Assembly: GCA_041675085.1 (NCBI GenBank)
Contig: JBAYUN010000003.1
Coordinates: 28,798 to 92,797 of the forward strand
Reading direction: 5' to 3'
DNA from: Minisyncoccota bacterium
Lineage (GTDB): Bacteria > Patescibacteriota > Minisyncoccia > Phycocordibacterales > UBA9973
Length of the DNA stretch: 64,000 nucleotides
Program-made: the position numbers and the translations under genes
Shown here: one piece after another, positions 13,551 to 42,821 of the stretch
How positions within the stretch are numbered: the first letter of the stretch is position 1
Layout: the number at the start of each line of letters is the position of its first letter
Notes under the pieces: model-generated
Databases searched by the model: none
Told to the model about the DNA's origin: nothing
Seen by the model: only the letters and a program-made list of their open reading frames with translations

Positions 13551-13557
13551 AAATATT

Positions 13558-24523: not shown

Positions 24524-25576
24524 ATGAAAATAAAAAATAATTTAAATAAAAATATATTTTTTGGATTGATAGGCTTTATATTTGGAATTATTGTAATGAT
24601 AGTTATTTTTTATACTAATTTTTTTGGTTTTAATTCTGCTAATGTAAATAAAAGTCCCTTTTTTACTGAATCTAGTTTAGATAATGATAAATATAATTTC
24701 CTGAGACCATTTATTGCTTCTGGGTATAAAGATAATAATGAAAAGGAATCATTAAAGTGGTTTCCTTCAGAAAGAAATTTAAAAAATTTAGTACAAGATG
24801 CTGTTTTTGAAAACAATGAAGTAAAGACTAGCGTATTTTTTCTAAATTTAAATAACTCAGGTTGGTTTAGTGTAAACCCTACTGATACTTTTATTCCAGC
24901 AAGTTTGTTAAAGTTACCCATGCTGATTTCGTATTACAAATTACATGAATCTGAAAAAGATTTATTTGATAAAAAAATAAATTATCAAGGTGAGAATTTT
25001 AACCAGTTTAAAAATCTTGGCAACGGGACTATTGTACCAGGGCAGACTTATACAGTTAAAGAATTAATGAGAGAGATGGTTGTACATTCCGATAATAATG
25101 CTTTGCAGCTGCTCTATAAGTACAGAGAGGAATCTTTGAAGTCTATATTTGCTGATATGAATATACCACTACCATCTACTGATCAAGAAATAGCTTCAAA
25201 AGATTTCATGACTGCTAGGGATATTGGTCGTTTTCTTTTGGTCTTATATAATTCTTCGTATCTAAGTTTAGAAAATTCTGAAGAAGCTTTACAGATATTA
25301 TCTGAATCTGTGTTTAAAGATGGTATTGTAGCTGGTGTTCCTAGTAATATAGTGGTGAGTCATAAATTTGGTGAAAGGACATTGGATCAAAATGGGCAAA
25401 ATTTAAAAACTGAATTGCATGATTGTGGTATTGTATATCATCCCAATATACCATACATAGTTTGTGTCATGACCAAAGGAAGTGATATTGAGTCAGAAAA
25501 ATTGCAAATTCAAAAAATCTCAAAAATAATTTATGAGGGCGTTGATTCTTTTGCCAATAATTCTAAAGAAAATTAA
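24524..25576 (+). CDS. membrane-anchored class-A beta-lactamase-like serine hydrolase
   Basis: N-terminal TM. PASLLK (SxxK), VHSDNNA (SDN loop) and HKFG (a KTG-like triad variant) appear in the correct order and spacing. The stop overlaps the start of the downstream 3210-aa gene (TAATG). Confidence 0.5.
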   Translation: MKIKNNLNKNIFFGLIGFIFGIIVMIVIFYTNFFGFNSANVNKSPFFTESSLDNDKYNFLRPFIASGYKDNNEKESLKWFPSERNLKNLVQDAVFENNEVKTSVFFLNLNNSGWFSVNPTDTFIPASLLKLPMLISYYKLHESEKDLFDKKINYQGENFNQFKNLGNGTIVPGQTYTVKELMREMVVHSDNNALQLLYKYREESLKSIFADMNIPLPSTDQEIASKDFMTARDIGRFLLVLYNSSYLSLENSEEALQILSESVFKDGIVAGVPSNIVVSHKFGERTLDQNGQNLKTELHDCGIVYHPNIPYIVCVMTKGSDIESEKLQIQKISKIIYEGVDSFANNSKEN

Positions 25577-28500
25577 TGAAAAAAGATTTTTATATTAATC
25601 TAATAAAATTTTCTTCAACACTTTTTGTTTTTGTGTTTCTATTTTTGTTTACTACAAATGCAGCAGAAGCTGCTGTGAAGACATGGACTGGATCTACTAG
25701 TGATTTGTGGTCTGTGGGTGCGAACTGGGGAGGTGATGTTCCTGTCACGGGAGATGACTTGGTGTTTCCTGATGGAACATCAAATCTTTCTAGTACGAAC
25801 GATTTGACTGAAAATACAATTTTTAATTCAATTACTTTTTCTGGTAGTGGTTACACTCTTTCAGGAAACAGTATTATTTTAGGACCAGGGCTTGCAGGTA
25901 TTACTGACGTTACTTCTTCTGGAGGAAATACGATTGCATTTGATATTCGTTTAGATGTTACTCGTGATATTTATGTAACTAATATAAATGAGACTTTGAC
26001 TATCAGTGGTAGAATAGCTGGTGTCGGAGGTATTAATAAAGAAGGTGAGGGAAAATTAATTCTTTCTGGTGCGAATACTTATGGCGGTATTACAAAAGTA
26101 AATGTGGGAGTATTGAATGCACAGAACGATAAATCTCTCGGGACTATTTTGGCAGGAACAGAAGTTGTAGGTAATGCTGTTCTTGAGTTGCAAGGAGGAA
26201 TCAATATTAGTTATGAAGCTTTAGCTTTGCGTGGTTACGGGGTTTCAGAAAATGGAGCCTTAAGAAATATTAGTGGCAATAATACTTATGGTGGATTAAT
26301 TACACTGAGTTCGGCTGGAGGTACAGAAATATCATCGGATGCTGATACTCTCACAATCACAGGAGGTATGACTGGAGCGTTTCCATTATTCATTGATGGA
26401 CCAGGTAATATTACTTATTCTACTACTCCTATTGCTATTGCAGCCGGTACAGTTACAAAGAAAGGTTCTGGTACTTTGAGATATAATTTTCCTAATACTT
26501 ATACTGGTTTAACAATCATTGACGCAGGGACTCTTCTTTATGGGACAAATAATGCAATCCTTTCTGGAGGTGTTACTGTGACAGGAGGAACTTTAGATAT
26601 ATCTAATTATTCTGATATGTTAGGAACTGTAACTCTTGGAACTTTAGATTTAGCTAGTGGTACTATTACAGGTACTTCAGGAGTATTAAGTAGTCCTACT
26701 TGGACAGTTTATAATGGTAGCATTAATGCTATTATTTCTGGATATGGTGGAACTCTCACAAAGAGTACTCCAGGCACTGTAGTTTTAGGGAGAGCTAATA
26801 GGTATACTGGAGCTACTAGTATAAATGGAGGTATTTTAGAAATTCAAGATAGTTCATCTCTTGGAACAATTGATGGTATTACTACTGTTTCTGGTGGCTC
26901 AACATTGCAAATAAATGGAGATGGAATGTTAATACCAGAATATATTGCTTTTTCTGGTACTGGACATTTATATAAAGGTGCTATTCGCAACAAAAATGGA
27001 AACAATACTTTATCGGGTTTATTGACTACGGGTTCTGGGGCTATGATTGTGTCTGAGATAGATACAATTTTAACAATTGATGAGAGAGGCGTTTCAGTTA
27101 CAACAATAGGTTTGACTGTAGGGGGTGCGGGTGATGTTGTTTTTACCGACGATGCACCTATATATGGAACCACTGGTACTTTAACCAAAAATGATGAAGG
27201 TCTTTTAACTATAAATTCTTTTTCTAATATTACTGGTGTTATATCTATAAATAGAGGTGATGTTGTATTGAGTGGTTTAGGCGCTTTACCAATTGCTACG
27301 ACAATTTTTATAAATGCTGGAGCTACTTTGACGCTAGATAATACTTCAAATATAGTAAATGATCGTATCGCCGATACAGCTGTGGTTACGATGAATGGTG
27401 GTAATTTTAATTTTAAAGGCTCGAGTTCTGGTGATGTTCTTGAAACTACTGGAGTCTTAACATCAGGTATAGCTACTCAGTCAGGAGATAATAAAATAAC
27501 TATTACTCCAGGTTCTGGAGGGTCTACTGTTATGCGTTTTGCATCACTTATACGTACCGCTGGATCTTCATTACTTTTTAGAGGTACTTCTCTCGGCTCT
27601 ACTCCGGCGGCCAATGTATCGACTTTACTTTTCACAACTGCGCCTACTTTGTTGGGAGATGATGGAGAATCTAATTCACCAACACTCAGTATTATTCCTG
27701 GTGCTTTTGGCGACAATTCTCTAACTGGCACTGGTACAGATATGGTAACTTACAATAAAGGTAATATTAATGGATTACGTTTATTGAATGGGATAGGTTT
27801 TACTGGAGAATATACTAGTGATATTAATAGGACTAATGGAAATGTGAAACTCACTTCTTCTATCTCAGCTACTACTTCACTAATAAATTCTCTCATACTT
27901 AGCTCTGGATCAAGTATTACTAATCCAAGCACATCTCAAAATATTACTTTAACTTCTGGAAATATTTTAAATTTAGTGAATGGTGCTAACATTGCTGGAG
28001 CTAATACTACTTTGATTATGGATGGTAATGTTGAAGGATTCATTCGTGCAGTAGAGGATATTGATTTTTCTTCTTCTATTGCAACAACCGGAGGATTTAC
28101 AAAAACAGGTGAAGGAACACTAACTTTTTCTAGAGCTCAAACTTATACAGGTCTTACCTCGGTTAATGAAGGTACTTTTTTATATGGTATAGCTGATACT
28201 ATTTCTTCTGGTAACGTGACTGTTAATGGTGGAATTTTAGATATTGCAAACTTTAATGATACTGTAGGTGCAGTTATTTTACAAAAAGGAACTATTACTG
28301 GTAGCACTGGAGTATTGAGTGGAGCTTCATATAATCTCAGAGAAGGAACAGTGAGTGCTATTTTGGGAGGAGGGGTAACTCTCACACGTATTGCAACAAA
28401 TACCGCGGCTGATAGTATTGTGGCTTTGACTCGAGAGAATAGTTATACAGGAGTGACAACTATAACAAGCGGTATTTTGAAAATAGGTGCAGCTGGGAAC

Positions 28501-31500
28501 GGTACGAATTCTCCTCTTGGTACAATAGCTAGCGGTACGACTATCGCCAACATAGCCGCGCTTGACCTTAATGGTTATACTTTGTCGACTACAGAAGCTA
28601 TAACTTCTCTTAATGGATCAGGTTTTGGACCTAGTGCTACTGTTGCTAATGGTAATAGTGTTATGGGTGCTCTAATGAATAGCTCGGGAACTTCTGTTAG
28701 TTATAATGGAAATATTGCTCTTGGGTCTGCGTCGAGAATTAATGCGGATTTTGGAACAATTAATATTACTGGGAATATCTCCGGGGCTTTTGGTCTCACT
28801 ATCGGAGGGTATAGCAATACAACTTTAGCAGGGACTATTGGTGCTGGTGCTTTGTCTTTAACTAAAGATGGAATAGGTACACTTACACTATCAGGTTCAA
28901 ATTCTTATACTGGGGCAACAACTGTGAGTTCAGGTACAATTAAACTTGGTGCAACTGGTAGCGGTAGTAATACACCTCTTGGTACTACAGGAGGTACAAC
29001 AACTGTCGCTACTGGTTCACGTTTTGATCTTAATGGTTTTACTTTAGCTACAGCAGAAACTATTACTTTAAATGGTGTTGGTTATGGTATTGGTAATGGA
29101 GCTAGTGGGGCATTAATCAATAGTTCTGTTTCTTCTGTTACATATAGTGGGCAAATCTTGCTTGGTTCTACGGGTACAATGGTTAAAGCCGATTATGGTG
29201 ATATTAATCTAACTGCTGCAGGTACAATCACGGGTGCAAATTTTGGTTTAATTTTAGCGGGATCTGGTAATGGAACTTTGTCTAGTATTATTGGTACTAC
29301 CTCTGGAACAGTTACAAAAATTGGAAGTGGAATGTGGACCTTGTCGGGTTCTAGTACGTATACTGGAGCGACTAATATAAATATAGGTACTTTGAGGCTT
29401 GGGGCGACTGGGGGAGCGACAAATACACCACTTGGAACTATTGGGTCTGGGACTGTGGTCTCAAGTGGAGCGGTCTTGGATTTAAATGGTTATACTCTCG
29501 GCACAGTTGAAGGTCTAACTATTAACGGACGTGGTATTGGTAACGGAGGTGTGCTTATTAATAATTCTATTAGTAGCACAACTTATCCTGGCGGAATAAA
29601 TCAAGCTACAGATTCTCGTATTGCAAATTCAGGAGCTGGGCTTTTGACACTATCCGGTGCAGTCAGTGGGGCTTTTACTCTTCAGGTGGGTGGAGCGGGT
29701 AGTACTACATTTAGCACCGCTATTCCTACTACCTTTCTTATTTTAAGAAAACAAGGTGCGGGTACTCTAACTCTGACGGGTACGAATCTAAATATAGGAG
29801 GAGTAATAATAGATGAAGGAACATTAACTTATGGAGCGGCAACAACTTTAGCCGCCACTCCAATGACTGTTCTCGGTGGGACTTTTAATATGAATGGGAC
29901 TACAGATGCTATTGGTGCCGTTACTCTTATCGGAGGCAATATTTCTAATGGAACTCTAACATCTGCTACTAGCTATACTCTTGAAAGTGGTACAGTTAGT
30001 GCTATTTTAGCAGGAGCTGTGCCTGTCATAAAAAATACAAATAATACTGTTGTACTCTCTGGTGTAAATACTATAAGTAGTACCACTACTATCAACGCTG
30101 GTACTCTAACCATTAGCGGTAGTGGAAGCGCTACAGCGACTACTATCACAGTAAACTTGGGTGGGACTTTAACTTTGGATAATTCTTCTACAGCTGTAGC
30201 TAGTCGTTTAGGAGATGCAATAGCGCTCACTATGAACGGTGGTAATTATAATTTTATTGGTAATTCTGCAGGAGCATCCTCTGAAACAACAGGAGCCTTA
30301 ACTTTATTAACTGGGCATAATACCGTGACTGTTACTCCTGGTTCTGGTGGAAGTACTACAATGACTTTTGCAAGCTTGTCTCGCACTGCCGGAGCTACTG
30401 TTCTTTTCCGAGGAACTGGTCTAGGGACAGCTTCTGCTGCTAATATTTCTACTTTAGTTTTTACAGCAACACCTACTTTAACTGGTGGGGGTGGTGCATC
30501 TGGTTCTACGACTGTCAGTGTGATTAAAGGAGCATATGGAGACTCTTCTTTATCTGGTACAGGTAGTGATATGGTGACTTATCAAGGTGGAACTGGTTTA
30601 CGTTTATTAAACGGCGCAGGATTTTCTGGAGAATATGCGACTAATTTATCTACAGCAAATGCTAATGTAAAATTAACTGCTAGTGCAACAGCTACAACAA
30701 CAAATACGAACTCATTAATTTTAAATGGTTTTAGTGTTACTGATCCTGGAGTAGATACTACTTTACCAATTGCATCTGCTTCGCTTGCTGGAAATATTTT
30801 AATAAACTCGGCTAATGACATTGCTGGTTCAAATACAACTCTAGGTATTACAACTTTTGAATTACCTATTTTAGCAACATCTAATGGAGCGATCACTGCT
30901 AAGATAGGTACTGCTACCTCAGGGGTGCTTACTTTGAGTGGTTCTGGAAATGTCACCTTAAGTGCGGCTAATCTTTATAATGGGTTAACATACATTAATG
31001 GAGCTACTCTTACTTATGGTGTAAGTAATGCTATTTCTACTGGAGGTGTGGTTGTGCGTGGTGGTTTGTACGACTTGAATGGAAATTCAGATATTATAGG
31101 TTCTTTATCTCTTACTGCAGCTTCTGTTGCTACGGCATCTGGTACTCTTACTTTAGGTGGAGATCTTACAAGTATTGCTAATGGAAATTTTAGTTCAAAG
31201 ATAACTGGTAATCTGGATCTTGGGTTTAATAGAATTTTTAATATCGGTGACGGGCTTGTTGATAATGATCTTATTGTGTCGGCTATTGTTAGTGGTGCTT
31301 TTAATGTAACAAAAAGTACAGGTACTGGGGTTTTGGTATTCTCTGGAGATAATACTTACACTGGTTCCACTACTATCAGTGCTGGAACTTTAAGGCTTGG
31401 TGCAAATGGTGGTGTTACAAATACACCTCTTGGTACTACTTTAGGCAATACTATTGTTTCTGGTGCATCTTCAGCTCTTGATTTGAATGGTTTTACTTTA

Positions 31501-34500
31501 GGCACGGCTGAGCCTTTGACATTAACTGGAGCACTGGCTACTGGTGCTTTGCAAAATACCTCAAGTGATTCTGTGACTTACAGTGGTTTAATAACTCTTG
31601 GTGCAGCTAGTACTATAATATCTAATTATGGTGATATTAATATTAGTAATGGCGGTAACATAACAGGGAATACTTTTGGTCTTACTATTGGAGGTGCAGG
31701 TAATGGAACTCTGTTTAGCAATTTAAATACTGGAACTGGCACTTTAACTAAAAATGGTTTAGGCGTTTGGACTATATCAGGTGGGGCTAGTACATACACA
31801 GGACTTACTACAATTAGTGCGGGTACTTTGAAACTTGGTTCTGCTGGTAGCGGAGTGAACACTCCACTTGGCACTGTCGCTGGTGGAGTTACTGTTACCA
31901 GTGGAGCAATATTTGATTTAAATGGTTTTACTTTAGCTACAGCAGAACCCATTGGATCTTTAAACGGAACAGGTATTGCAAACATCGGTGCACTTATTAA
32001 TAGCTCCAGTAATACAATATCATTCACTGGGACAATTACTTTAGGTGCTGCTTCTCGTGTCGTTAATTATGGTAACGGAGTTTTGACTTTAGCTGGTAAT
32101 ATAGGTGGTAACTTTGCTTTAACTTTAGTGACTGTAGGTGGTATTACGCAATCTTCTAACAGTATACGTTCTGGTACTAGTACAATAATCAAAGAAGGTT
32201 CTGGTACATTAATCTTGACTGGTCAAAATACTTTTACTGGTGCTGTAACTGTAAGTACAGGTGTATTGCAACTTGGAGCCAGTGGTGGGGCTACGAATAC
32301 ACCCTTGGGTACTAGTGCTGGAGGTGTAGTGGTTTCTACTGGTGCAGTTTTGGATCTTAGTACTTATTCTTTAGGTGGAGCTTCTACTTATGAAACTTTA
32401 AACCTAAGTGGTACTGGTATTGGTAATGGTGGTGTATTAATTAGTACAGCTAGTGGAAATAATAATTTTGGTGCAGTGACAGTGGCGGCGAGCTCTCTCG
32501 TTGTTAATAATGGTAGTGGTACTATAACTTTTGGTGGAACTATTACAATTGCTAATAGTATAAACTTAAGTATTGGCGGTACAGGACCGACAACAATCTC
32601 TGGAGCTTATGGAGCAACAGCAACATCTGCAACTTTAACAAAATGGGATTCTGGAACATTGTCTATGGGTAGTGTAGCAAGTATTACTACTGGCTTAGTG
32701 CGTATTAATGGTGGAACTATAAAATATGGAATAAATGATTCATTCGCCACTCCTTTTTTAACAATAGCTGGTGGAACCTTAGACTTAAATGGATTTAATG
32801 AAACTAATATTGGAGCTGTTACTTTAATTGATGGATCTATTGTAAATACTGGTGGTGCATCAACTCTTACATCTACTACTACTTATACAGTAGAGAATGG
32901 AACAATTAGTGCTGTTTTAGCTGGTGCAGCCATAGCTTTTAATAAAAATACTGGCGGTACAGTTAGTCTATCTGCCGCTAATACTTTCGCAGGATTAACA
33001 AGTATTAACGCAGGAACTCTTGCTTGGGGAATTAATGATGCATTGTCTAGTGGAGCTCTTACTGTGACGGGAGGTATTGCTGATTTAGGAACTCATACTG
33101 ATACTGTTGGTACTGCTACTTTAACCTCTGGAAGTATAAAAAGTAGTACAGGTATTTTAACCGCAACTTCTTATGCTGTAGCGAGCGGTAGTATTGGTGC
33201 TATTCTTGCTGGCGCAGTGAATTTAACTAAAACTACAGTAGGCTTAGTTACTCTGTCTGGAAATAATACTTATACTGGTATTACTACTATTAGTGGTGGA
33301 ACCTTAAGTGTATCAAATATTGGTAATGGAGGAGTAGTAGGGAATTTAGGTCAAGCTACGAATGCTGCTGCTAATATTGTATTTAATACTGGTACAGGTA
33401 CATTACAATACACAGGTTCTACGGCTTCTACTGATAGATCTTATACTACAACTACTGCTATAACTACAAACTTTGATATCACTAATCCTGGTACTGTGTT
33501 AACTTGGTCTGGTGCTGGTACTGTTACCACAGCTATTGTCACAAAAATAGGCCAAGGTACTTTAAAATTTTCAGCTTCACAAGGTCATACTGGTGCAACA
33601 AATATACTTGCAGGAACTTTACAATATGGAGTAGCTAATATGCTTTCTACTGGTACTGTAAATATAAGTAATGGTATTCTTGATATCAATAATTTCTCTG
33701 ATAGTGTGGGTGTTATTACTTTGCAAAATGCTGGTTCTATTATTGATTCTGGTGGAACCACAGCAGTTTTAACCACCACAGGAACCGGAGCTTTCCAAAG
33801 TGGATTTATTAGTGCTAGACTCGGAGGGTCAATATCTACAGCAATCACTAAATCTACTAATGGTAGAGTTGTATTGTCAGGTGATAATACTTTTACTGGT
33901 ACTATAATTTCTTTGTTCACTGGTTATTTATCTCTTCTTCATAATAATGCATTAGGCGCTTCAGGCACTTCTCTCGGTCTAATTGTAACATCTGGCGCAG
34001 TCTTGGAATTAAATGGTGATATTATGATACCGAGTACTAAAGCTTTTACTATTAATGGTTCTGGTGTAAATAACTTGGGTGCAATTAGAAATGTCAGTGG
34101 TGCAAATACTATAATGGCTTTTGGTAATTTTGCTTTAGGTTCTAATAGTCGCATTAATTCGGATAGTGGTAGTTTAACTATCCCTACTATTTCTGGTAAT
34201 AGTAGGAGTCTAACATTCGGTGGGGCTGGAGATATAACTGTCACTGGTGCTATCAGTACAACCAGTGGTACTCTAACTAAAGAAGGTTCTGGTGTTTTGA
34301 CTCTTACTGGAACGAATACGTACTATGGAACAACTACTCTAACTTTGGGGACTATTATAGCCAACTCTACTTCATCTCTAGGAGATGGTAGTGCTACTAA
34401 TACTTTAATATTTAATGGTGGAACTTTAAAAGCTTCAGGGACTATAACTTCCCCTGTTGATCGAACTGTGACTCTTGCTGGTAACGCTACTATTGATACT

Positions 34501-35208
34501 AATGGTAATAATGTTAGTATCGCGGGAACTGTTGGTTCAGCTGGAGGTCTGACTAAAAATGGTGCCGGGACCCTAACTCTCACCGGAGTAACTACTATCG
34601 GTAATGGTCTCACTATAGATGACGGAACTTTTGTGGCTCCGACCAGTTTAACTATTACTGGAGATCTGACCAATAGTGGTACTTTCACTCATAGTAATGG
34701 TACAGTGGTTTTAAACCCTAATGCAATAAATAGTACTGCTAATGTATTTGGTAGTTCTAATACTATTTTTTATAATTTTACTTATGCTACAGCTAACTCG
34801 AATCTAAAATTTAAAGCCGGCAATACTTATACTTTCACAAATCTTTTAACCTTAACCGGAACTCTAGGTAGTCCTATTTCATTAAGTTCAGACACCAATG
34901 GAGTTCAGTGGCTCATGGTCCTTTCTGGTTCTAGTAGTGTTGCTTATATAAATGTACGAGACTCTGGATGTAGTAGTGGTAATACTGTCCCTGTTGATTA
35001 TCCTTCTATTTCTAACTCTGGAAATAATGGGTGGTGCTGGTCATTTATAAGTCTCAGTGGTGGTTCTGTGAGTAATGTAGAAGTTTCTGTAACCCCAGAT
35101 CCAGATCAAACAGGAGGAGATGAGGGTGGAGGTGTGGGAATTGAAGATGAGGGAACGGGAGATGTGGAAGGTGGAGGTGGTTCTGGTGGAGGTGGCGGTT
35201 TAGAATAG
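25576..35208 (+). CDS. giant surface protein (3210 aa) built from autotransporter-associated beta-strand (PATR-like) repeats
   Basis: Signal peptide. There are dozens of degenerate repeats of the form TKxGxGTLTLSGxNTYTGxTTIxxGTLxLG, for example TKIGSGMWTLSGSSTYTGATNINIGTLRLGATGG. The C-terminus is Gly-rich (GGGGSGGGGGLE). Confidence 0.65.
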   Translation: MKKDFYINLIKFSSTLFVFVFLFLFTTNAAEAAVKTWTGSTSDLWSVGANWGGDVPVTGDDLVFPDGTSNLSSTNDLTENTIFNSITFSGSGYTLSGNSIILGPGLAGITDVTSSGGNTIAFDIRLDVTRDIYVTNINETLTISGRIAGVGGINKEGEGKLILSGANTYGGITKVNVGVLNAQNDKSLGTILAGTEVVGNAVLELQGGINISYEALALRGYGVSENGALRNISGNNTYGGLITLSSAGGTEISSDADTLTITGGMTGAFPLFIDGPGNITYSTTPIAIAAGTVTKKGSGTLRYNFPNTYTGLTIIDAGTLLYGTNNAILSGGVTVTGGTLDISNYSDMLGTVTLGTLDLASGTITGTSGVLSSPTWTVYNGSINAIISGYGGTLTKSTPGTVVLGRANRYTGATSINGGILEIQDSSSLGTIDGITTVSGGSTLQINGDGMLIPEYIAFSGTGHLYKGAIRNKNGNNTLSGLLTTGSGAMIVSEIDTILTIDERGVSVTTIGLTVGGAGDVVFTDDAPIYGTTGTLTKNDEGLLTINSFSNITGVISINRGDVVLSGLGALPIATTIFINAGATLTLDNTSNIVNDRIADTAVVTMNGGNFNFKGSSSGDVLETTGVLTSGIATQSGDNKITITPGSGGSTVMRFASLIRTAGSSLLFRGTSLGSTPAANVSTLLFTTAPTLLGDDGESNSPTLSIIPGAFGDNSLTGTGTDMVTYNKGNINGLRLLNGIGFTGEYTSDINRTNGNVKLTSSISATTSLINSLILSSGSSITNPSTSQNITLTSGNILNLVNGANIAGANTTLIMDGNVEGFIRAVEDIDFSSSIATTGGFTKTGEGTLTFSRAQTYTGLTSVNEGTFLYGIADTISSGNVTVNGGILDIANFNDTVGAVILQKGTITGSTGVLSGASYNLREGTVSAILGGGVTLTRIATNTAADSIVALTRENSYTGVTTITSGILKIGAAGNGTNSPLGTIASGTTIANIAALDLNGYTLSTTEAITSLNGSGFGPSATVANGNSVMGALMNSSGTSVSYNGNIALGSASRINADFGTINITGNISGAFGLTIGGYSNTTLAGTIGAGALSLTKDGIGTLTLSGSNSYTGATTVSSGTIKLGATGSGSNTPLGTTGGTTTVATGSRFDLNGFTLATAETITLNGVGYGIGNGASGALINSSVSSVTYSGQILLGSTGTMVKADYGDINLTAAGTITGANFGLILAGSGNGTLSSIIGTTSGTVTKIGSGMWTLSGSSTYTGATNINIGTLRLGATGGATNTPLGTIGSGTVVSSGAVLDLNGYTLGTVEGLTINGRGIGNGGVLINNSISSTTYPGGINQATDSRIANSGAGLLTLSGAVSGAFTLQVGGAGSTTFSTAIPTTFLILRKQGAGTLTLTGTNLNIGGVIIDEGTLTYGAATTLAATPMTVLGGTFNMNGTTDAIGAVTLIGGNISNGTLTSATSYTLESGTVSAILAGAVPVIKNTNNTVVLSGVNTISSTTTINAGTLTISGSGSATATTITVNLGGTLTLDNSSTAVASRLGDAIALTMNGGNYNFIGNSAGASSETTGALTLLTGHNTVTVTPGSGGSTTMTFASLSRTAGATVLFRGTGLGTASAANISTLVFTATPTLTGGGGASGSTTVSVIKGAYGDSSLSGTGSDMVTYQGGTGLRLLNGAGFSGEYATNLSTANANVKLTASATATTTNTNSLILNGFSVTDPGVDTTLPIASASLAGNILINSANDIAGSNTTLGITTFELPILATSNGAITAKIGTATSGVLTLSGSGNVTLSAANLYNGLTYINGATLTYGVSNAISTGGVVVRGGLYDLNGNSDIIGSLSLTAASVATASGTLTLGGDLTSIANGNFSSKITGNLDLGFNRIFNIGDGLVDNDLIVSAIVSGAFNVTKSTGTGVLVFSGDNTYTGSTTISAGTLRLGANGGVTNTPLGTTLGNTIVSGASSALDLNGFTLGTAEPLTLTGALATGALQNTSSDSVTYSGLITLGAASTIISNYGDINISNGGNITGNTFGLTIGGAGNGTLFSNLNTGTGTLTKNGLGVWTISGGASTYTGLTTISAGTLKLGSAGSGVNTPLGTVAGGVTVTSGAIFDLNGFTLATAEPIGSLNGTGIANIGALINSSSNTISFTGTITLGAASRVVNYGNGVLTLAGNIGGNFALTLVTVGGITQSSNSIRSGTSTIIKEGSGTLILTGQNTFTGAVTVSTGVLQLGASGGATNTPLGTSAGGVVVSTGAVLDLSTYSLGGASTYETLNLSGTGIGNGGVLISTASGNNNFGAVTVAASSLVVNNGSGTITFGGTITIANSINLSIGGTGPTTISGAYGATATSATLTKWDSGTLSMGSVASITTGLVRINGGTIKYGINDSFATPFLTIAGGTLDLNGFNETNIGAVTLIDGSIVNTGGASTLTSTTTYTVENGTISAVLAGAAIAFNKNTGGTVSLSAANTFAGLTSINAGTLAWGINDALSSGALTVTGGIADLGTHTDTVGTATLTSGSIKSSTGILTATSYAVASGSIGAILAGAVNLTKTTVGLVTLSGNNTYTGITTISGGTLSVSNIGNGGVVGNLGQATNAAANIVFNTGTGTLQYTGSTASTDRSYTTTTAITTNFDITNPGTVLTWSGAGTVTTAIVTKIGQGTLKFSASQGHTGATNILAGTLQYGVANMLSTGTVNISNGILDINNFSDSVGVITLQNAGSIIDSGGTTAVLTTTGTGAFQSGFISARLGGSISTAITKSTNGRVVLSGDNTFTGTIISLFTGYLSLLHNNALGASGTSLGLIVTSGAVLELNGDIMIPSTKAFTINGSGVNNLGAIRNVSGANTIMAFGNFALGSNSRINSDSGSLTIPTISGNSRSLTFGGAGDITVTGAISTTSGTLTKEGSGVLTLTGTNTYYGTTTLTLGTIIANSTSSLGDGSATNTLIFNGGTLKASGTITSPVDRTVTLAGNATIDTNGNNVSIAGTVGSAGGLTKNGAGTLTLTGVTTIGNGLTIDDGTFVAPTSLTITGDLTNSGTFTHSNGTVVLNPNAINSTANVFGSSNTIFYNFTYATANSNLKFKAGNTYTFTNLLTLTGTLGSPISLSSDTNGVQWLMVLSGSSSVAYINVRDSGCSSGNTVPVDYPSISNSGNNGWCWSFISLSGGSVSNVEVSVTPDPDQTGGDEGGGVGIEDEGTGDVEGGGGSGGGGGLE

Positions 35209-35246: not shown

Positions 35247-35636
35247 ATGAAAAATTTTTTACAGAAACATGCCTTATACTTTTTGGTTTTTACTGTTTCA
35301 GTTATTTTTGTATTAATTTTTATTTTAGTAAAATTTGTTTTTTTTCAAAAATCAGAAGTAAAAACTGAGAGTGATATATTGATAGATAAAGTAGGAGAGA
35401 TAGTGTATTTGCCAATAGGTGAGACGCCTTCTGTCGCTACCGTGACCGATCCTTCCAAATTAAAAAACCAAAACTTTTTTGAAAACGCAAAAACAGGAGA
35501 TAAGGTTTTGATTTATCCCAAATCAGGTAAAGCAGTGTTATATGATCCTGAAGTACATAAAATCGTAAATATTTCTTCAATTTTATTGAATGCATCTTTG
35601 GAAAACGAATCAAATATTAATCAACAAGAATTTTAA
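35247..35636 (+). CDS. hypothetical N-terminally anchored protein
   Basis: 129 aa with a single N-terminal TM. It is the first gene of the surface locus. Confidence 0.3.
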   Translation: MKNFLQKHALYFLVFTVSVIFVLIFILVKFVFFQKSEVKTESDILIDKVGEIVYLPIGETPSVATVTDPSKLKNQNFFENAKTGDKVLIYPKSGKAVLYDPEVHKIVNISSILLNASLENESNINQQEF

Positions 35637-35637
35637 A

Positions 35638-36633
35638 ATGATTAAAAAGAATTTTGTTACAAAAATCTTTATATTGTCTTTTCTCTTATTGTTGTCTTTT
35701 TTTAATGCTTTTGCTGAAGATCTGACTAGTACTAATTTCATAGTTCGTGATCCTATTATTGGTACAGGTGGTTCTTATGGAACCTCTACGAATTTTAAGC
35801 TTTATGGTTCTGGGAATGCCAATATTTCAGGCCAAGGATCTTCTACTAATTTTATTGGACGTAGTGGATTTTTATATTTTCCATTTGTTGATGTTGGTGT
35901 TTTGACCGCTCTACAGAACGGAGTTGATGTTGATTTATCGTGGACTGTTTCTACTGCTGGTTTAGGTTTTAACGTGTCTGGATACAAGGTTGGATTCTCT
36001 GGTGTGCCAGGTGGACCGTATAGTTATACTACACTCGGTTTAGTAACTACTTATACTTATGAAGATATAACTCCCGGAGAGTACTGTTATGTTGTTGAGA
36101 CTTTAGATAGTTTTGGGAATACTATCGGTAAAACCAATGAAGATTGTATTACTGTAGATCCAGTCATATCGTTTTCTATTTCTGATAATAGTTTAAATTT
36201 TGGTAATTTATCTATTTCTGGTCCGAGATATGCTAATACATCTACTGGTAGTGCTACAAGTACTGTCGCTCATACAATATCTGCAGGATCTAATGCTAAT
36301 TCGGGTTATGTTATTACATATAATGGGTCTACTCTAACAAGTGGGTCTAGTAATATAGATGTTGCTTCATCTGTGTCAGGGGACGGAACTCCTGGTGTTG
36401 AACAATTCGGCATCTCTCTTAGTACTAATGGTTCTGCTATTATCCCAATACCTTATAGGCAAACAGGTCCAACTCGGACATATGTCGCAAATACTACGAC
36501 TGAGATAGCTTCGACTAGTGGAGTTACTTCTTCTGAGACTTTTAGTTTGTATTATTTAGCTAATATTTCAAGTATTACAGAAGCAGGTGAGTATCAAGCT
36601 AATATTACTTACGTGGCGACCGGTGAATTCTAG
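35638..36633 (+). CDS. secreted surface protein, paralog A (Fn3-like domain plus WxL/TasA-like C-terminal beta domain)
   Basis: Start at MIKKNF with a Sec signal ending in a predicted AFA cleavage site. Three S(T)NF motifs. An Fn3-like segment reads DVDLSWTVS..GYKVGFSG..YSYTTL. The C-terminal domain runs ISFSISDNSLNFGNLSISG ... TEAGEYQANITYVATGEF and is paralogous to that of 36718..37770. Confidence 0.45.
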   Translation: MIKKNFVTKIFILSFLLLLSFFNAFAEDLTSTNFIVRDPIIGTGGSYGTSTNFKLYGSGNANISGQGSSTNFIGRSGFLYFPFVDVGVLTALQNGVDVDLSWTVSTAGLGFNVSGYKVGFSGVPGGPYSYTTLGLVTTYTYEDITPGEYCYVVETLDSFGNTIGKTNEDCITVDPVISFSISDNSLNFGNLSISGPRYANTSTGSATSTVAHTISAGSNANSGYVITYNGSTLTSGSSNIDVASSVSGDGTPGVEQFGISLSTNGSAIIPIPYRQTGPTRTYVANTTTEIASTSGVTSSETFSLYYLANISSITEAGEYQANITYVATGEF

Positions 36634-36717: not shown

Positions 36718-37770
36718 ATGTTTAGAAAAATCACGAGTTTTGTTTTGATGTTTATGTTAGTTTTAGTTTCTTCTTACTCATCTGTTTCGTCTTATGCATA
36801 TGCAGCTTCTTTGTCTGCTATGTCTGCTACTTTAAGTACAGAAAAAGCTTCGACTGCTTCCAATTACACCATACAGTTTACAACTCCTACTGGTGTAGCA
36901 TCAGGGCAAACTATTATTTTAACTTTTGATAACTCTACGAGTGTTCATGCTTCTTTGGACTTTACAGATATTGATCTAAAAGACGACGGAGTAGACGTAA
37001 CACTAGCTGCTGCTCCAGCAGCTGCAACTTGGGGAGTAGTACGTACTTCTGGTACAGTTATTACTTTCACTAACGGTACTACAGCAGTAGGTGCTGGTAG
37101 TGTTATAAATATAGAGATTGGTACTCATGCTACTACAGGTGCGACTGGTGACCAACAAATCACAAACGGTTCTGCGGGAACAACATTGCTTACCATGTCT
37201 GGTACATTTACTGATACTGGCGTTATAGGTATTCCAGTAATAGCTGATGATGTTGTGGTTGTGAATGCTCGTGTTCAACCTTCTATTTCATTTACTGTTT
37301 CTGATAATACTATCTTTTTTGGTAATCTACGTACAGCTGGAGCTTGTTTTGCACAAGGTACAGATCCTGGAGCAGTAACTTGTCCTACCACTACTGAAAC
37401 AGAAGCTTTCAATCTTACAGCTGGAACAAATGCTACCTCCGGTTATGTTATAACTGTACAAGGAGCAACTTTGACTTCGGGCGCAGATACTATTGATCCT
37501 TTGGCTGTGAATACTGCTTCAAGTCCTGCTTCAGAACAATTCGGTATGCGTATTACTGCATCAGGTGGTTCTGGTGCTGTGACTGCTCCGTATGCAGCTG
37601 CTGGTTATGCTTGGACAGCGTCAGCTTCTACTCCAGCTCAAATAGCTTCAGCTGGAGACCCTTCAGCTACTACTACATATTCTGTTCGCCAATTGGCTAA
37701 CATTTCAGCTGTAACAGAAGCTGGTACATATACTTCAACTCAAACTTACGTTGCTACTGCTACCTATTAA
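36718..37770 (+). CDS. secreted surface protein, paralog B
   Basis: Sec signal ending in a predicted AYA cleavage site. The C-terminal domain runs SFTVSDNTIFFGNLRTAG ... NATSGYVITVQGATLTSG ... TEAGTYTSTQTYVATATY and aligns with paralog A. Confidence 0.45.
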   Translation: MFRKITSFVLMFMLVLVSSYSSVSSYAYAASLSAMSATLSTEKASTASNYTIQFTTPTGVASGQTIILTFDNSTSVHASLDFTDIDLKDDGVDVTLAAAPAAATWGVVRTSGTVITFTNGTTAVGAGSVINIEIGTHATTGATGDQQITNGSAGTTLLTMSGTFTDTGVIGIPVIADDVVVVNARVQPSISFTVSDNTIFFGNLRTAGACFAQGTDPGAVTCPTTTETEAFNLTAGTNATSGYVITVQGATLTSGADTIDPLAVNTASSPASEQFGMRITASGGSGAVTAPYAAAGYAWTASASTPAQIASAGDPSATTTYSVRQLANISAVTEAGTYTSTQTYVATATY

Positions 37771-38820: not shown

Positions 38821-39732
38821 ATGGTTAATTATTTTTTTAAAAAAATCATATTAGCTTTACTAATAATTTTATCCTTATTTCCATTTTATGTTATTAGAGC
38901 AGTAGACATTATAGATTCAGATGATGTTGTTGTTAGTGCAAGAGTCATAGACACTAGTATAGTCATTCCTCCAACCCCTACATCTCTGGGTGGTGGCGGG
39001 GCGGTGAATCTTTTTATTCCAAAGATAGGTGTCGCCTTAAGAGGGGAAGCGTATCCAAATGCAAAGATAACATTACTGAAAGGTGGTATTTTTGTTCTTT
39101 CAGTGAATGCTGATAATCGTGGATTTTTTAATATGTCAATTGAAGAAAAGTATGAGAATACAGCTCTCTATACAATTTTTGCCGAAGACTCTGATGGAAA
39201 TAAATCTTTGCTGCTAAATTATCCAGTAGCAGTTTATTCTGGGTATATTACCGAGCTTAGTAATATACGCTTTGCTCCGACCATATCTTTAGATAAATCC
39301 GAAGTTTTAGAAGGTGACTATATTACTATATATGGTTATGCTATGCCTGATAGATCTTTATATGTATCTTTAGATGGCTTAAATCAGAAAAATTTTCTTA
39401 CCAATTCTTTATCAGATGGATCATATAAAATAACCATACCAATGACAGATTTATCAAAAGGTAGTTATAGTTTGAATATTAAATATTTAAATGATACTCG
39501 TATTAGTAAGTTAGTAAAATTTATAATTGGAGATTCTAATAAAAATGTCGAAAATTATCCTCTTGTAATACAAGGTGATTGTAATAAAGATAATTTGATA
39601 AATCTTATAGATTTTTCGGTGATGGCTTTTTGGTACAAGAAAGATAATCCACCTTCATGCGTAGATGTGAATAGTGACAATGTTGTAAACTTAATAGACT
39701 TTTCTATATTAGCTTATTTCTGGACCAATTAA
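38821..39732 (+). CDS. secreted dockerin-domain protein
   Basis: Signal peptide. The C-terminus carries duplicated Ca-binding dockerin loops: GDCNKDNLINLIDFSVMAFWY and VDVNSDNVVNLIDFSILAYFW. Both place D/N/D/N/D at loop positions 1,3,5,9,12. Confidence 0.6.
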   Translation: MVNYFFKKIILALLIILSLFPFYVIRAVDIIDSDDVVVSARVIDTSIVIPPTPTSLGGGGAVNLFIPKIGVALRGEAYPNAKITLLKGGIFVLSVNADNRGFFNMSIEEKYENTALYTIFAEDSDGNKSLLLNYPVAVYSGYITELSNIRFAPTISLDKSEVLEGDYITIYGYAMPDRSLYVSLDGLNQKNFLTNSLSDGSYKITIPMTDLSKGSYSLNIKYLNDTRISKLVKFIIGDSNKNVENYPLVIQGDCNKDNLINLIDFSVMAFWYKKDNPPSCVDVNSDNVVNLIDFSILAYFWTN

Positions 39733-39735
39733 TTT

Positions 39736-40614
39736 ATGAAAAAAAATATTTTTTTAATAATTTGTGCTTTATTTTTTATCCCTCGTGTTCTTTTTGCTTC
39801 TAGTATATATCTTACTGGAGAACAAAATACTAACATCGGAGAATCTTTTAAAGTACTTGTTTCTATTGATTCAGAAAATAATGCTATTAATTCTATTGAT
39901 GCTATTGTGGGTTTTGATTCTAATTTAATTGATTATATTGGTTTTCAAGATAATGAAACTTTATTTAAAAATTGGATCCAAGCCCCGTCTGTATTTGAAA
40001 GTAATAAAATTCAAATGACTGGTATTGTGCCTGGGGGGGTTAGTGGTATTTATAATCCAAATCAAAAAAAACTCGATGATATTCGTGTAGTCTATCTTGT
40101 TTTCAAGTCTAAAAAAACAGGTGTGGCGAATTTTGTTTTTCATAAAAAAGATGTCTTGCAAAATGATGGTTTAGGTAGTCCTCTTTCTGTAGATAGCAAA
40201 AATTTCTCTGTAAATATAAAAGACAATAATTCTCCTACATTTAATTATGACGCATTCGAAGCTCAAAAAAATACAGAAGATACATTGCCACCTTTACCTT
40301 TTATAATTACATTTATACCTGCCCTAAAAGCCTCAGAGACAAATACTATGATTTCTTTTATAGCCGAAGATATTGAGTCTGGTATTAAAGAATATCGCAT
40401 CAAAAAAGGTGGATCTTATGAAGTTGTGACTAGTCCATTAATCGTAAATAAAAGTTTGTTTTCTAAAAAGATAACCATCAGAGCTTATGATTTTAATGAT
40501 AATTTTACTGAATCTCATATTCAGATAGACGGTATTGTGACTTTTTGGCATATAATAATTCTTTTGATTGGATTGTTTTCTTCTAGTCTTTTCGTGCGTA
40601 AATTGCTAAAATAG
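39736..40614 (+). CDS. membrane-anchored cohesin-like domain protein 1
   Basis: Signal peptide. SFKVLVSIDSENNAINSIDAIVGFDSNLIDYIGFQDN ... VVYLVFKSKKTGVANFVF ... NDGLGSPL fits the cohesin beta-sandwich pattern. C-terminal TM FWHIIILLIGLFSSSLFV. Confidence 0.45.
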   Translation: MKKNIFLIICALFFIPRVLFASSIYLTGEQNTNIGESFKVLVSIDSENNAINSIDAIVGFDSNLIDYIGFQDNETLFKNWIQAPSVFESNKIQMTGIVPGGVSGIYNPNQKKLDDIRVVYLVFKSKKTGVANFVFHKKDVLQNDGLGSPLSVDSKNFSVNIKDNNSPTFNYDAFEAQKNTEDTLPPLPFIITFIPALKASETNTMISFIAEDIESGIKEYRIKKGGSYEVVTSPLIVNKSLFSKKITIRAYDFNDNFTESHIQIDGIVTFWHIIILLIGLFSSSLFVRKLLK

Positions 40615-40618
40615 AATT

Positions 40619-41731
40619 ATGTATTTTAGGAATTTTTTAATAATATTCATTTTATTTTTTGGGCTTTTCTTTTCTTTAAACATGGACGCCCTAGCTTCCT
40701 CTTCACTCTATTTTAGTAAACCCCCTATTGTGTCTGAAGGAGACAGACTGACTATCTTTTTAAGAGTAAATTCTACAGATCAATCCATAAATGCTGTCTC
40801 TGGTGTAGTTTCTTTTCCAGAGAATTTATTGCGAGCTGTGTCTGCCTCTAAAGAGTCTAGTATTATTAATCTCTGGACTGGTGAGCCTAAAATAACTAGG
40901 GGTCAAATATCTTTTGAGGGAGTTATTCTTAACCCTGGTTTTTCTGGTAATAATGGACTAGTTTTAAAAATTGTCTTTGAAGCAAAGACTAAAGGAGTCG
41001 CCAATTTAAATTTTACTGAAGGCTCGATTTTGGCTAATGACGGATTGGGTAGTAACGTTTTAGCAGATTTGTCAGGTACGAGTATTAGGATCAATAGTTT
41101 TGTAAAACCGACTGATACTCGTCCTATAAAAGTTGTAGCGGAAGAAAAGACAGAAATAAAGACAGAAAATAAACTTGCAAAATTACCAGTGATAGTAGAA
41201 GCCTCTTCGTCCATAGCCTCAAAAGAAAAGATATACATATCAGGTAAAGGTGAGCCCAACAGTCTTACCAAAATCGTATTCAAAGACGTATCATTGAGGT
41301 CTCTTGGTGAAGAACTTTTGACTCGACTTCAATTCAAGAAAACTAAATTAGATTCTATCTTAGTTAAAAATGATGAATTGGGTAATTTCCAGTACACTAG
41401 TACTTCAAATTTAATAGCAGGAGTTTATAATGCTACCCCTTTTCTTGTCGATGAAAATGAGAGTATCGAGAAACCAGGTCTAGGTACTCAGATTTTAGTT
41501 AGTGATAGTAAAATTGTAAAAAATCTAATTGTATTTATTAACGTACTAGGTCTGTTTATACCGATAGTTATACTCTGTGTTATAATTTACTTTATACCTT
41601 GGTATTCATGGCTTCGAATGAGAATCCTAAAAAAGAAATTAGGGTTAGAAGAAGAGAAGATAGAACTTACTGGTATCAATTTAGCACGTCAAGATAATTT
41701 ACTTAATCAAAATATTAATGAAAAAAAATAA
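40619..41731 (+). CDS. membrane-anchored cohesin-like domain protein 2
   Basis: Signal peptide. DRLTIFLRVNSTDQSINAVSGVVSFPENLL ... LVLKIVFEAKTKGVANLNF ... NDGLGSNV is a paralog of the preceding cohesin-like domain. C-terminal TM LIVFINVLGLFIPIVILCVIIYF. Confidence 0.45.
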   Translation: MYFRNFLIIFILFFGLFFSLNMDALASSSLYFSKPPIVSEGDRLTIFLRVNSTDQSINAVSGVVSFPENLLRAVSASKESSIINLWTGEPKITRGQISFEGVILNPGFSGNNGLVLKIVFEAKTKGVANLNFTEGSILANDGLGSNVLADLSGTSIRINSFVKPTDTRPIKVVAEEKTEIKTENKLAKLPVIVEASSSIASKEKIYISGKGEPNSLTKIVFKDVSLRSLGEELLTRLQFKKTKLDSILVKNDELGNFQYTSTSNLIAGVYNATPFLVDENESIEKPGLGTQILVSDSKIVKNLIVFINVLGLFIPIVILCVIIYFIPWYSWLRMRILKKKLGLEEEKIELTGINLARQDNLLNQNINEKK

Positions 41732-42821
41732 CCTCAATTTTATATTCCTGTTTTTGTCTGTTTTGGCTATAATGATAGTCCCGACATTTTTATTGTCCGC
41801 TCAAAATAGAGATTTATTAACCCCAGAAGAAACTCTTTGGCTTAGCTCTAGAAACAATACTATAGTAGTCTATCCTGAGAAATCTTTTGCTCCTTTTTCT
41901 TATCAGTCTAATTCAGGTACTCCTCTTGGTCTATCTGTCGATTATATAGAATTAATAGCCGAGAAAGTTGGCGCACAGGTAGAATACTTGCCAGCTAAGT
42001 CCCTTGCTCAGATCATAGAAGACGTAAAGCTCGGTAAAGGGGATGTAGTCACTTCACTCATTGATTCTCCTGAGAAACAAGGTCTTCTTTATTTTACTGA
42101 TAGTTATACTGATATATCTTCTGTTGTCGTAACTCGTAAAGATTCCGTTATTAAGAGTGGTATTACTTTAAATGACTTGAACGGCCAAAAAGTAGCAGTG
42201 ACTTCGGGCAGAGCTGTAGAGAATTTCATTGCTAAGAATTACCCTAGAGTTATTATTAGTCCGGTGACAGATGATGAGATAGGTCTACAACAAGTAGTCT
42301 TAGGGGAAGTAGATGCTGCTATTATGGATATTGCCTCTTTGTCTTTTTATTTATCAAAGCAAGTCCTAAGTAGCGTGAAGGTTGTAGGTAATGCAGGTTT
42401 TGAATACAAATTATCTTTTGGTGTACCTAAAGATAAACAAATATTGCAATCAATACTAGACAAAGGTTTGACTCAGATAAGCAAAAATGAAAGGAAGATT
42501 TTTAATGAAAAATGGATAGTGACTCCAGAAGATCAGAAAAATAATTTTTGGAGTATAGCAGGAGCTACTCTTACTAATGATATTTTTCAGTATAATTTTT
42601 TCTTATTGACAATATTTATTTTAGTTATTGTTTTTATAAAGCATAAAGACAATTATAAAAGTCGTTACTATAGATTTCTTAAAAAGAAAGAAGACGTGGA
42701 CGAAGTAGAAGAAGAAGTAGATAAATTAGAAAAAATGAGTGATATGCTAAAAGAAGAATTGGACCATATTAAAGAAACTGAAAATAAATTAAAAGAAAAA
42801 TTAGACTCTATTGAAAAATAA
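41718..42821 (+). CDS. SBP_bac_3 (polar amino-acid binding protein fold) domain protein with C-terminal TM and coiled coil
   Basis: Signal peptide. NTIVVYPEKSFAPFSYQSNSGTPLGLSVDYIELIAEKVGAQVEY matches the GlnH/HisJ-type SBP start. A TM follows (FFLLTIFILVIVFI) and then a charged coiled-coil tail (EELDHIKETENKLKEKLDSIEK). Confidence 0.55.
   Translation: MKKNNLNFIFLFLSVLAIMIVPTFLLSAQNRDLLTPEETLWLSSRNNTIVVYPEKSFAPFSYQSNSGTPLGLSVDYIELIAEKVGAQVEYLPAKSLAQIIEDVKLGKGDVVTSLIDSPEKQGLLYFTDSYTDISSVVVTRKDSVIKSGITLNDLNGQKVAVTSGRAVENFIAKNYPRVIISPVTDDEIGLQQVVLGEVDAAIMDIASLSFYLSKQVLSSVKVVGNAGFEYKLSFGVPKDKQILQSILDKGLTQISKNERKIFNEKWIVTPEDQKNNFWSIAGATLTNDIFQYNFFLLTIFILVIVFIKHKDNYKSRYYRFLKKKEDVDEVEEEVDKLEKMSDMLKEELDHIKETENKLKEKLDSIEK

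Follow-up and report, generated by a model that had tools for sequence, protein, structure and literature searches.

Cohesin–dockerin pairs are the hallmark of cellulosomes. A large part of bacterial diversity belongs to the candidate phyla radiation (CPR; Patescibacteria), whose members rely on attachment to host cells and whose surface machinery is mostly unannotated. Here we describe three adjacent genes, coding for a secreted dockerin-tailed protein (P5) and two membrane-anchored cohesin-fold proteins (P6 and P7), in a 64-kb stretch of DNA (contig JBAYUN010000003.1, positions 28,798 to 92,797; hereafter the window) that is a chromosomal piece of a CPR/Patescibacteria genome. P5 and P7 correspond to WC011_02575 and WC011_02585 (100% identity) of a Candidatus Paceibacterota metagenome-assembled genome, both annotated as hypothetical proteins. 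With moderate confidence, we read this dockerin–cohesin–cohesin triad as a non-cellulosomal tether of a Pam-type donor-strand-exchange pilus.

The best fold and sequence matches of P5 and P7 fall among the cellulosomal type-I pairs of Acetivibrio and Clostridium scaffoldins (5nrm, 2vn6, 6kgf and 2y3n), which have the same ~55-aa dockerin with two Ca-loop/helix repeats in near-symmetric halves and a ~140-aa cohesin. Their non-covalent plug-and-socket logic, with a secreted protein held on an anchored one, would be expected here too. Unlike these pairs, the genes described here are accompanied by no enzymes, carbohydrate-binding modules (CBMs) or multi-cohesin scaffoldin, and they lie in a pilus locus of a CPR bacterium. 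Each cohesin is a lone one with its own transmembrane (TM) helix, not part of an SLH- or sortase-anchored scaffoldin, and the window cohesins are too divergent for Pfam Cohesin. Non-cellulosomal pairs are already known from Archaeoglobus fulgidus, from Clostridium perfringens toxins and enzymes, and from ANME and Omnitrophota genomes, so a place outside the cellulosome is not new in itself. The A. fulgidus cohesin 2xdh is among the closest structural matches of P7, and the C. perfringens GH84C module (2w1n/2jh2/2ozn), made of a cohesin and a fibronectin type III (FnIII) domain, provides in 2w1n a mirror of the P7 arrangement. Those modules serve the assembly of toxins or enzymes, or their roles are unknown; no such module has been reported as the membrane tether of a pilus subunit, and none as a conserved dockerin–cohesin–cohesin triad. 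The searchable literature yielded neither a cohesin–dockerin pair tied to a pilus locus nor such a triad in CPR bacteria. The first-pass annotation of this DNA had suspected that the combination was undescribed; no paper on this combination was found, but the name given by NCBI to some P7 orthologues is already 'cohesin domain-containing protein'.

In Pap pili, a donor-only subunit, PapH, terminates polymerisation at the base. We propose the same logic for P5, as a strand donor that is unable to accept, ends polymerisation and marks the base. The analogy is one of logic: unlike chaperone-usher pili, the present system has no usher and no outer membrane, and anchoring would rest on cohesin and dockerin, not on usher retention. 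The Pam pilus, the first CPR-specific pilus, was described by cryo-electron microscopy from Ca. Mycosynbacter amalyticus in a preprint of 2026 (bioRxiv 10.64898/2026.03.03.709456). In its filaments, the inter-domain linker strand of one subunit is donated into the truncated immunoglobulin (Ig) domain of the next; the parts comprise the pilins PamA, PamB, PamE and PamT, the membrane-anchored PapD/FimC-like chaperones PamC and PamD, and a proposed tether, PamR, in which a TM helix accompanies two FnIII domains and an N-terminal strand. The same report placed the system mainly in Saccharimonadia and Microgenomatia and did not mention cohesin or dockerin.

The window resembles the Pam system in that both its pilins match CPR_Pam_pilin_C, a TM protein with a signal peptide and beta domains is encoded where a PamC/D-like chaperone would be expected, and the proposed terminal subunit has an extra N-terminal strand (PamR there, P5 here). 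PamR, compared here by its description, has its own TM helix, whereas the strand-bearing P5 is separate from the anchors P6 and P7 and is presumably joined to them through cohesin and dockerin. No single window protein shows the PamR-type layout: P5 has the strand, two Ig domains and a dockerin, and P6 and P7 have TM helices and no free N-terminal strand. The locus also recalls the WxL/WxLIP (DUF916–DUF3324) clusters of Firmicutes (PMC10599100; 9i25), since the family of its 336-aa protein matches WxLIP_PGBD and has the same succession of signal peptide, beta domains and TM helix. Unlike in those clusters, no WxL domain was detected by Pfam or NCBIfam in any locus protein, and the partners are Pam-type pilins.

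P5 ends in a type-I dockerin

The species representatives of GTDB were scanned for relatives of P7, which were found to be encoded on 389 stretches; 79 loci (numbered with the prefix L) were examined. The open reading frames (ORFs) of P5, P6 and P7 were confirmed at the coordinates given in Table 1, all on the forward strand.

The C-terminal tail of P5, GDCNKDNLINLIDFSVMAFWYKKDNPPSCVDVNSDNVVNLIDFSILAYFWTN, is a type-I dockerin with two tandem EF-hand-like Ca loops, each followed by a helix. As the first-pass annotation had pointed out, two canonical D-x-N-x-D-x-x-x-N-x-x-D loops are present (D253..D264 and D282..D293, with the Ca-loop residues D253-N255-D257-N261-D264 and D282-N284-D286-N290-D293), each with the hydrophobic motif DFS(V/I)(M/L)A(F/Y)(W/F) behind it. 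Across 52 P5 sequences, the Asp and Asn residues of the loops and the DFS..A..W motif were invariant or nearly so in both repeats, and the dockerin was the most conserved region of the protein (0.78). In a phmmer search, the single P5 sequence gave weak matches to the solved dockerins 2y3n_B, 2vn5_B and 4dh2_B, and a family profile of the 52 sequences matched 2y3n_B at E=4.4e-6 and 5nrm_B at E=0.005. The family-wide invariance and the profile E-values led us to reject a chance motif. More than 200 orthologues of ~300 aa exist, many of them with a precomputed PF00404 match, and the two that were tested, from L063 (23.6) and L065 (27.1), both scored above the Dockerin_1 gathering score.

The AlphaFold2 (AF2) model of P5 (predicted local distance difference test, pLDDT, 82.7) contained a signal helix, an isolated strand at aa 37-42, a disordered Gly/Pro segment at aa 47-66, two Ig domains and two helices. 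These two helices (aa 262-270 and 291-301; pLDDT 80-90) begin at loop position 10 of their repeats. The Ig domains were modelled with a pLDDT of ~85-97, and there the family profile matched Bap repeats (7dm0, E=3.9e-7). A Foldseek search with the P5 model was dominated by tandem-Ig adhesin stalks and returned nothing on the small dockerin.

P6 and P7 are predicted membrane-anchored cohesin-fold proteins

P6 and P7 each have a hydrophobic N-terminal signal and a hydrophobic C-terminal helix. In both, the cohesin-fold domain is followed by a disordered linker, a second beta domain and the C-terminal TM helix, which in the AF2 model of P7 lies within a helix of aa 298-369 whose cytoplasmic part is ~45 aa long. 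The P7 model (pLDDT 82; mostly 85-96 over aa 28-160) placed its N-terminal ~140 aa as a cohesin-type flattened beta-sandwich (jelly-roll). Cohesins ranked first in a Foldseek search with this model: the top match was 2w1n, the C. perfringens cohesin and FnIII double module (E=1.9e-10), and the other matches included 2xdh (TMt 0.78, root-mean-square deviation 2.8 A), 2vo8 (0.76), 6kge (0.75) and 5nrm (0.72), as well as 6kgf, 2vn6 and 2jh2.

A comparison with hhalign identified the N-terminal domains of P6 and P7 as paralogues (probability 99.2%, E=3e-19), and the cohesin assignment of P6 is taken over from P7 on this basis. The weak matches of both proteins to sequences in the PDB were almost all cohesins; for P6 these were 5m2s and 2jh2, and the P6 family profile matched the NagJ cohesin. 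PF00963 matched 4 of the 51 P7-family members (best 4e-7) and 3 of the 11 P6-family members (best 3.4e-5). Together, the Pfam matches of orthologues, the profile comparison, the paralogy of P6 and P7, the NCBI names and the predicted fold of P7 uphold the cohesin assignment, and with it the earlier description of each protein as a signal peptide, a cohesin-like domain and a TM anchor.

The two proteins evolve at different rates, with a mean identity of 33% for P6, the faster-evolving one, vs 52% for P7. Nothing else in the locus is as conserved as the TM helix and juxtamembrane motif of P7 (YFIPWYSWxRMR...); this would be unusual if the helix served only as an anchor, and it may point to oligomerisation or signalling. 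A third cohesin-domain protein occurs among some relatives (entries L003 8781-10073, L060 12628-14127, L068 9974-11716, L079 5382-6863 and L050 9068-11104). In L050, a single stop-to-stop ORF of 679 aa contains both a P6-like and a P7-like part; a fusion or a sequencing frameshift could account for this.

The order dockerin, cohesin, cohesin is conserved

Searches of the window with module hidden Markov models (HMMs) returned a single dockerin and exactly two cohesins, all adjacent to each other. The same order, dockerin, cohesin, cohesin, was found in all of the ~70 loci with enough upstream DNA, and the P6 gene was kept in every locus examined. About 50 of the 79 loci had the same nine-gene order as the window, namely the giant protein, the 129-aa membrane protein, two pilins, the 336-aa protein, P5, P6, P7 and the solute-binding-like protein. 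The first-pass annotation had treated the region from 35.2 to 41.7 kb as a single locus, and this conservation (~50 species for the gene order, >70 loci for the triad core) bears it out. The triad also occurred in records labelled Nomura-, Vogelbacteria, Komeilibacteria and Microgenomatus; in distant records, with labels that include the last three, the P7 homologue is 500-680 aa long.

Within the window, the genes from the 3210-aa repeat protein at 25576 to beyond P7 run in one direction. Only 3-4 nt separate the P5 stop (39732) from the P6 start (39736) and the P6 stop (40614) from the P7 start (40619), and an operon is likely because the gaps between genes are 3-8 nt. A scan for promoters and terminators found sites no commoner than in shuffled sequence.

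Two loci contain a further dockerin protein, of ~977 aa with an MG2-like region and a C-terminal dockerin, ~7 kb 3' of the triad (L012 17654-21045 and L014 18003-20933). In L012, this second dockerin gene directly precedes another cohesin-domain ORF, which is cut by the end of the locus; as the two adjoin, at least this genome has a second dockerin/cohesin gene pair.

Cohesin–dockerin pairs might bring to mind a small version of a cellulosome, scaffolding enzymes that degrade polysaccharides. Neither a catalytic nor a carbohydrate-binding domain was found in P5, P6 or P7, which agrees with the earlier claim of a cohesin–dockerin module outside a cellulosome context. Moreover, the 64-kb window has a single dockerin, each anchored protein has one cohesin, the genes nearby encode pilins, a chaperone-like protein and a giant repeat protein, and the organism has a reduced CPR genome. 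We rejected this explanation for want of enzymes and regard it as extremely improbable.

The upstream genes probably encode Pam-type pilins and a WxLIP-like protein

The three genes directly upstream of P5 had been called a 'WxL-like triad' in the first-pass annotation. That name fits only the third of them, which is WxLIP_PGBD-like; the first two match the NCBIfam model CPR_Pam_pilin_C (NF058581, cutoff 55 bits) and, judged by sequence, are Pam-type pilins with a truncated-Ig C-terminal domain. The inter-domain linker strand of pilin 2 in the window is ADDVVVVNARVQ. Its motif, D-D-x-V-(T/S)-(V/I)-(T/S)-A-x-V, was conserved across loci, with DDQVTVTATVN in most of them. The pilin-1 ORF as listed begins 47 nt inside the preceding 129-aa gene; its true start is probably the internal Met17 (MIKKNF..., nt 35638), just before the signal peptide.

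Among 25 orthologues of the 336-aa protein, 22 matched WxLIP_PGBD (best 4e-5) and 19 matched fn3_5, and the best PDB match was EfmWxLIP1 (9i25, E=0.11). This protein is a putative counterpart of the membrane-anchored chaperones PamC/PamD. The WxLIP likeness of this putative Pam chaperone family suggests that the Pam loci of CPR bacteria and the WxL clusters of Gram-positive bacteria are evolutionarily linked.

The N-terminal strand of P5 resembles the donor strand of the pilins

Right after the predicted cleavage site of its signal peptide, P5 carries the motif (S/T)(E/D)xV(S/T)(V/I)(S/T)AxV, followed by a variable Gly/Pro linker. This segment was more conserved than its flanks (0.62 vs 0.35), and in the AF2 model it is the isolated strand, left unsatisfied. 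The motif is that of the linker of the pilin adjoining the chaperone-like gene. Against the pilin linker, the P5 strand had a mean BLOSUM62 score of 19.5, compared with -4.1 +/- 6.8 for the other 10-mers of the same pilins (~3.5 standard deviations), and in 23 of 33 genomes the linker was the best-matching 10-mer of the pilin.

Natural fusions were found in 7 of 72 dockerin proteins (L025, L030, L054, L060, L063, L064 and L076). They begin with a head domain like that of the first pilin (identity of 34-53% across 83-176 aa), which is followed by the strand and linker and then by the P5 body. Such proteins appear to be, in effect, pilins whose acceptor domain has been replaced by Ig-Ig-dockerin, and their loci have no separate pilin and chaperone-like genes. 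The chaperone-like gene stood directly 5' of P5 in 39 of 41 loci with a strand-only P5 vs none of 5 with a fused one (Fisher p=1.5e-5, uncorrected for phylogeny), and 36 of those 39 loci also had pilins.

A proposed tether for the pilus base

On the basis of the domain layout, we propose the following mechanism. P6 and P7 would be exported by Sec and kept in the cytoplasmic membrane by their C-terminal TM helices, each holding its cohesin outside the cell on a flexible linker and the second beta domain. Secreted P5 would dock non-covalently, through its C-terminal Ca-binding dockerin, on the cohesin of P6 and/or P7, a step that we consider likely. Its two Ig domains would form a short stalk, and its free N-terminal strand would insert into the open C-terminal domain of the last pilin, mimicking the donation of a pilin linker. 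As P5 has a donor strand and no acceptor groove, it would end the filament at its proximal end, so that polymerisation stops and the filament is tied to the cell. P5 is thus probably the base subunit that links the pilus to its anchors, not free cargo. In the reduced relatives, a pilin head would be mounted directly on the P5 stalk. A role in host attachment, raised in the first-pass annotation, is plausible because the organism is a CPR bacterium.

The first-pass annotation had pictured P6 and P7 as alternative docking sites. Simple redundancy of two sites is unlikely because both cohesin genes are kept in every species and both dockerin halves are invariant. The symmetric, invariant halves fit either dual-mode binding or the simultaneous binding of two cohesins. 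A bolder version, which we consider unlikely, is that the halves clamp the P6 and P7 cohesins at once. Such a heterotrimeric membrane socket would be a load-bearing yet detachable pilus anchor, from which the TM and cytoplasmic helix of P7, possibly with the solute-binding-like protein, would report pilus engagement or tension; it would be CPR-wide, would have no counterpart among described attachment devices and would be an evolutionary substitute for the TM-tethered PamR.

The locus suggests that a large group of the Paceibacterota/Nomurabacteria type has a different solution for the pilus base, a dockerin-tailed terminal subunit seated in two cohesins. If this is right, the cohesin–dockerin module gains a structural role unrelated to enzyme assembly, and functions can be assigned to three widespread families of hypothetical proteins. 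It could also explain the easy shedding of Pam pili, and docking sensitive to Ca2+ and ethylenediaminetetraacetic acid, together with recombinant domains, would give a handle on episymbiont attachment without cultivation.

Weighing the tether against other explanations

Several observations weigh against the tether, and the first of them concern the docking modules. Pfam Dockerin_1 (PF00404), a check proposed in the first-pass annotation, matched window P5 at E=0.0014 but at 19.2 bits, under the gathering score of 22.9. Pfam Cohesin (PF00963) matched neither window P6 nor window P7 even at E<=1, which, taken literally, is an outcome that the first-pass annotation had itself named as refuting its reading; NCBIfam gave no cohesin match for either protein. 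In P7, the TM and cytoplasmic helix (0.83) and the second domain (0.75) were more conserved than the cohesin (0.66).

The points on P6 and P7 lend themselves to an explanation in which the two proteins are not dockerin receptors. They would instead form a membrane assembly platform or a sensor, perhaps with the solute-binding-like protein, or bind host ligands, and the dockerin of P5 would bind another partner or give Ca-dependent stability. The divergence of P6 and P7 from Pfam Cohesin and the ranking of the P7 ectodomain, TM and cytoplasmic parts above the cohesin speak in its favour, and a gene for a membrane-anchored solute-binding protein is a conserved neighbour with an overlapping start. 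Moreover, cohesin-like folds are known in proteins that do not bind dockerin, such as TMEM132 (PMC6030884). Such a platform would leave unexplained why one dockerin gene strictly adjoins two cohesin genes in >70 species and why the dockerin is the best-conserved region of P5. The fold matches, too, are mostly cohesins, many of them from dockerin complexes, and the second dockerin gene of L012 is followed by a cohesin ORF, with an equivalent dockerin gene in L014. We consider this explanation improbable. The anchors may nevertheless do more than anchor, because the TM and cytoplasmic helix of P7 exceeds the cohesin in conservation and the solute-binding-like gene is consistently the next one.

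The remaining adverse observations concern the link to the pilus. Strands rich in V, T, S and A are common in Ig-like proteins. Strand and linker from the same genome scored only marginally better than pairs taken across genomes (19.5 vs 18.5, p ~0.05), and this marginal co-variation is not counted as evidence of co-evolution. In some distant loci, such as L055, L057 and L065, no pilin was detected beside a strand-only P5. The fused proteins also admit a reading in which a stalk displays the head domain and no strand is donated. Finally, the chaperone assignment of the 336-aa protein, based on its layout, synteny and WxLIP-like sequence, is putative.

With these points in mind, P5 could be an independent Ig-stalk surface protein or adhesin that docks on the cohesins, shares an operon with the pilus and is not joined to it; the strand would then be a linker or a pro-segment. 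The cohesin–dockerin evidence is identical for this explanation and for the tether, and the triads without detectable pilins in some distant loci, the fused variants with a head domain and no filament, and the weak genome-specific co-variation of the strand would all suit it. It is harder to reconcile with a strand that stands out from its flanks in conservation and copies the linker motif of the pilins, and with a chaperone-like gene that is just 5' of a strand-only P5 almost always and of a fused P5 never. A headless stalk of two Ig domains also has no obvious function of its own. We regard such stand-alone display as possible but doubtful, and favour P5 as the base subunit of the pilus.

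Other features of the locus and its surroundings

Table 1. Features of the pilus and docking locus, with positions in the window
Feature	Position	Strand	Basis
Giant secreted repeat protein, 3210 aa (PATR / autotransporter-type beta-strand repeats)	25576..35208	+	PF12951 E=6e-49, 15 stretches; TIGR02601, 16 repeats
Small protein, 129 aa, N-terminal TM segment	35247..35636	+	ORF and conserved place before the pilin genes
Putative Pam-type pilin 1, 347 aa: variable head ~aa 42-189, C-terminal Pam pilin domain aa 201-347	35590..36633	+	NF058581, 76.2 bits
Putative Pam-type pilin 2, 350 aa: linker (putative donor) strand aa 176-187 (nt 37243-37278), C-terminal acceptor domain	36718..37770	+	NF058581, 84.8 bits
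336-aa protein: signal peptide, beta domains, C-terminal TM helix	37802..38812	+	WxLIP-like; syntenic
P5, 303 aa: signal peptide aa 1-27, N-terminal strand, Gly/Pro linker, two Ig domains, dockerin	38821..39732	+	
P5 N-terminal strand SDDVVVSARVID, aa 33-44, proposed donor strand	38917..38952	+	Conservation, AF2, likeness to pilin linker
P5 tandem Ig-like (Big_6) stalk domains, aa 68-150 and 155-238	39022..39534	+	PF17936 E=1.5e-6
P5 type-I dockerin, aa 250-303, two Ca-loop-plus-helix repeats	39568..39729	+	PF00404, PDB profile matches, conservation, AF2
P6, 292 aa: signal peptide; cohesin-fold aa 21-163 (nt 39796-40224); second beta domain aa 184-265; TM ~aa 268-287, tail RKLLK	39736..40614	+	
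P7, 370 aa: signal peptide; cohesin aa 27-160 (nt 40697-41098); disordered linker; FnIII/Ig-like aa 187-296; TM and cytoplasmic helix aa 297-370 (nt 41507-41728)	40619..41731	+	
SBP_bac_3 solute-binding-like protein, 367 aa, C-terminal TM segment and cytoplasmic coiled coil	41718..42821	+	PF00497 E=4e-21

The giant repeat protein, encoded by the first gene of the cluster, has a Gly/acid-rich C-terminus and takes the same upstream place in related loci. As a tip adhesin with a Pam acceptor domain it was rejected, since NCBIfam detected no Pam pilin domain in it; it is not an obvious tip subunit. The place of the 129-aa protein was conserved in ~25 or more loci, and the gene was also found directly 5' of the fused dockerin genes in L030 and L063.

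The gene for the SBP_bac_3 protein overlaps the P7 stop by 14 nt at its start. Its counterpart lies directly 3' of P7 in ~45 loci and is frequently duplicated, with tandem copies in, for example, L019, L031, L032, L035, L037, L041 and L044.

Further surface-type genes lie 5' of the cluster, all on the forward strand. One is a 2104-aa ORF (17586-23900) for which Pfam gave no match at E<=1e-4; another (15731-17146) codes for lamin-tail and PKD domains, and a third (24524-25576) for a beta-lactamase-family (Beta-lactamase2) protein. ARAGORN found no tRNA or tmRNA genes in the 64-kb window. Genes for DnaE, GAPDH, Rpe, MetK and a PIF1 helicase lie elsewhere in it, together with a split transketolase encoded by two adjacent genes (12690-13550 and 13522-14559).

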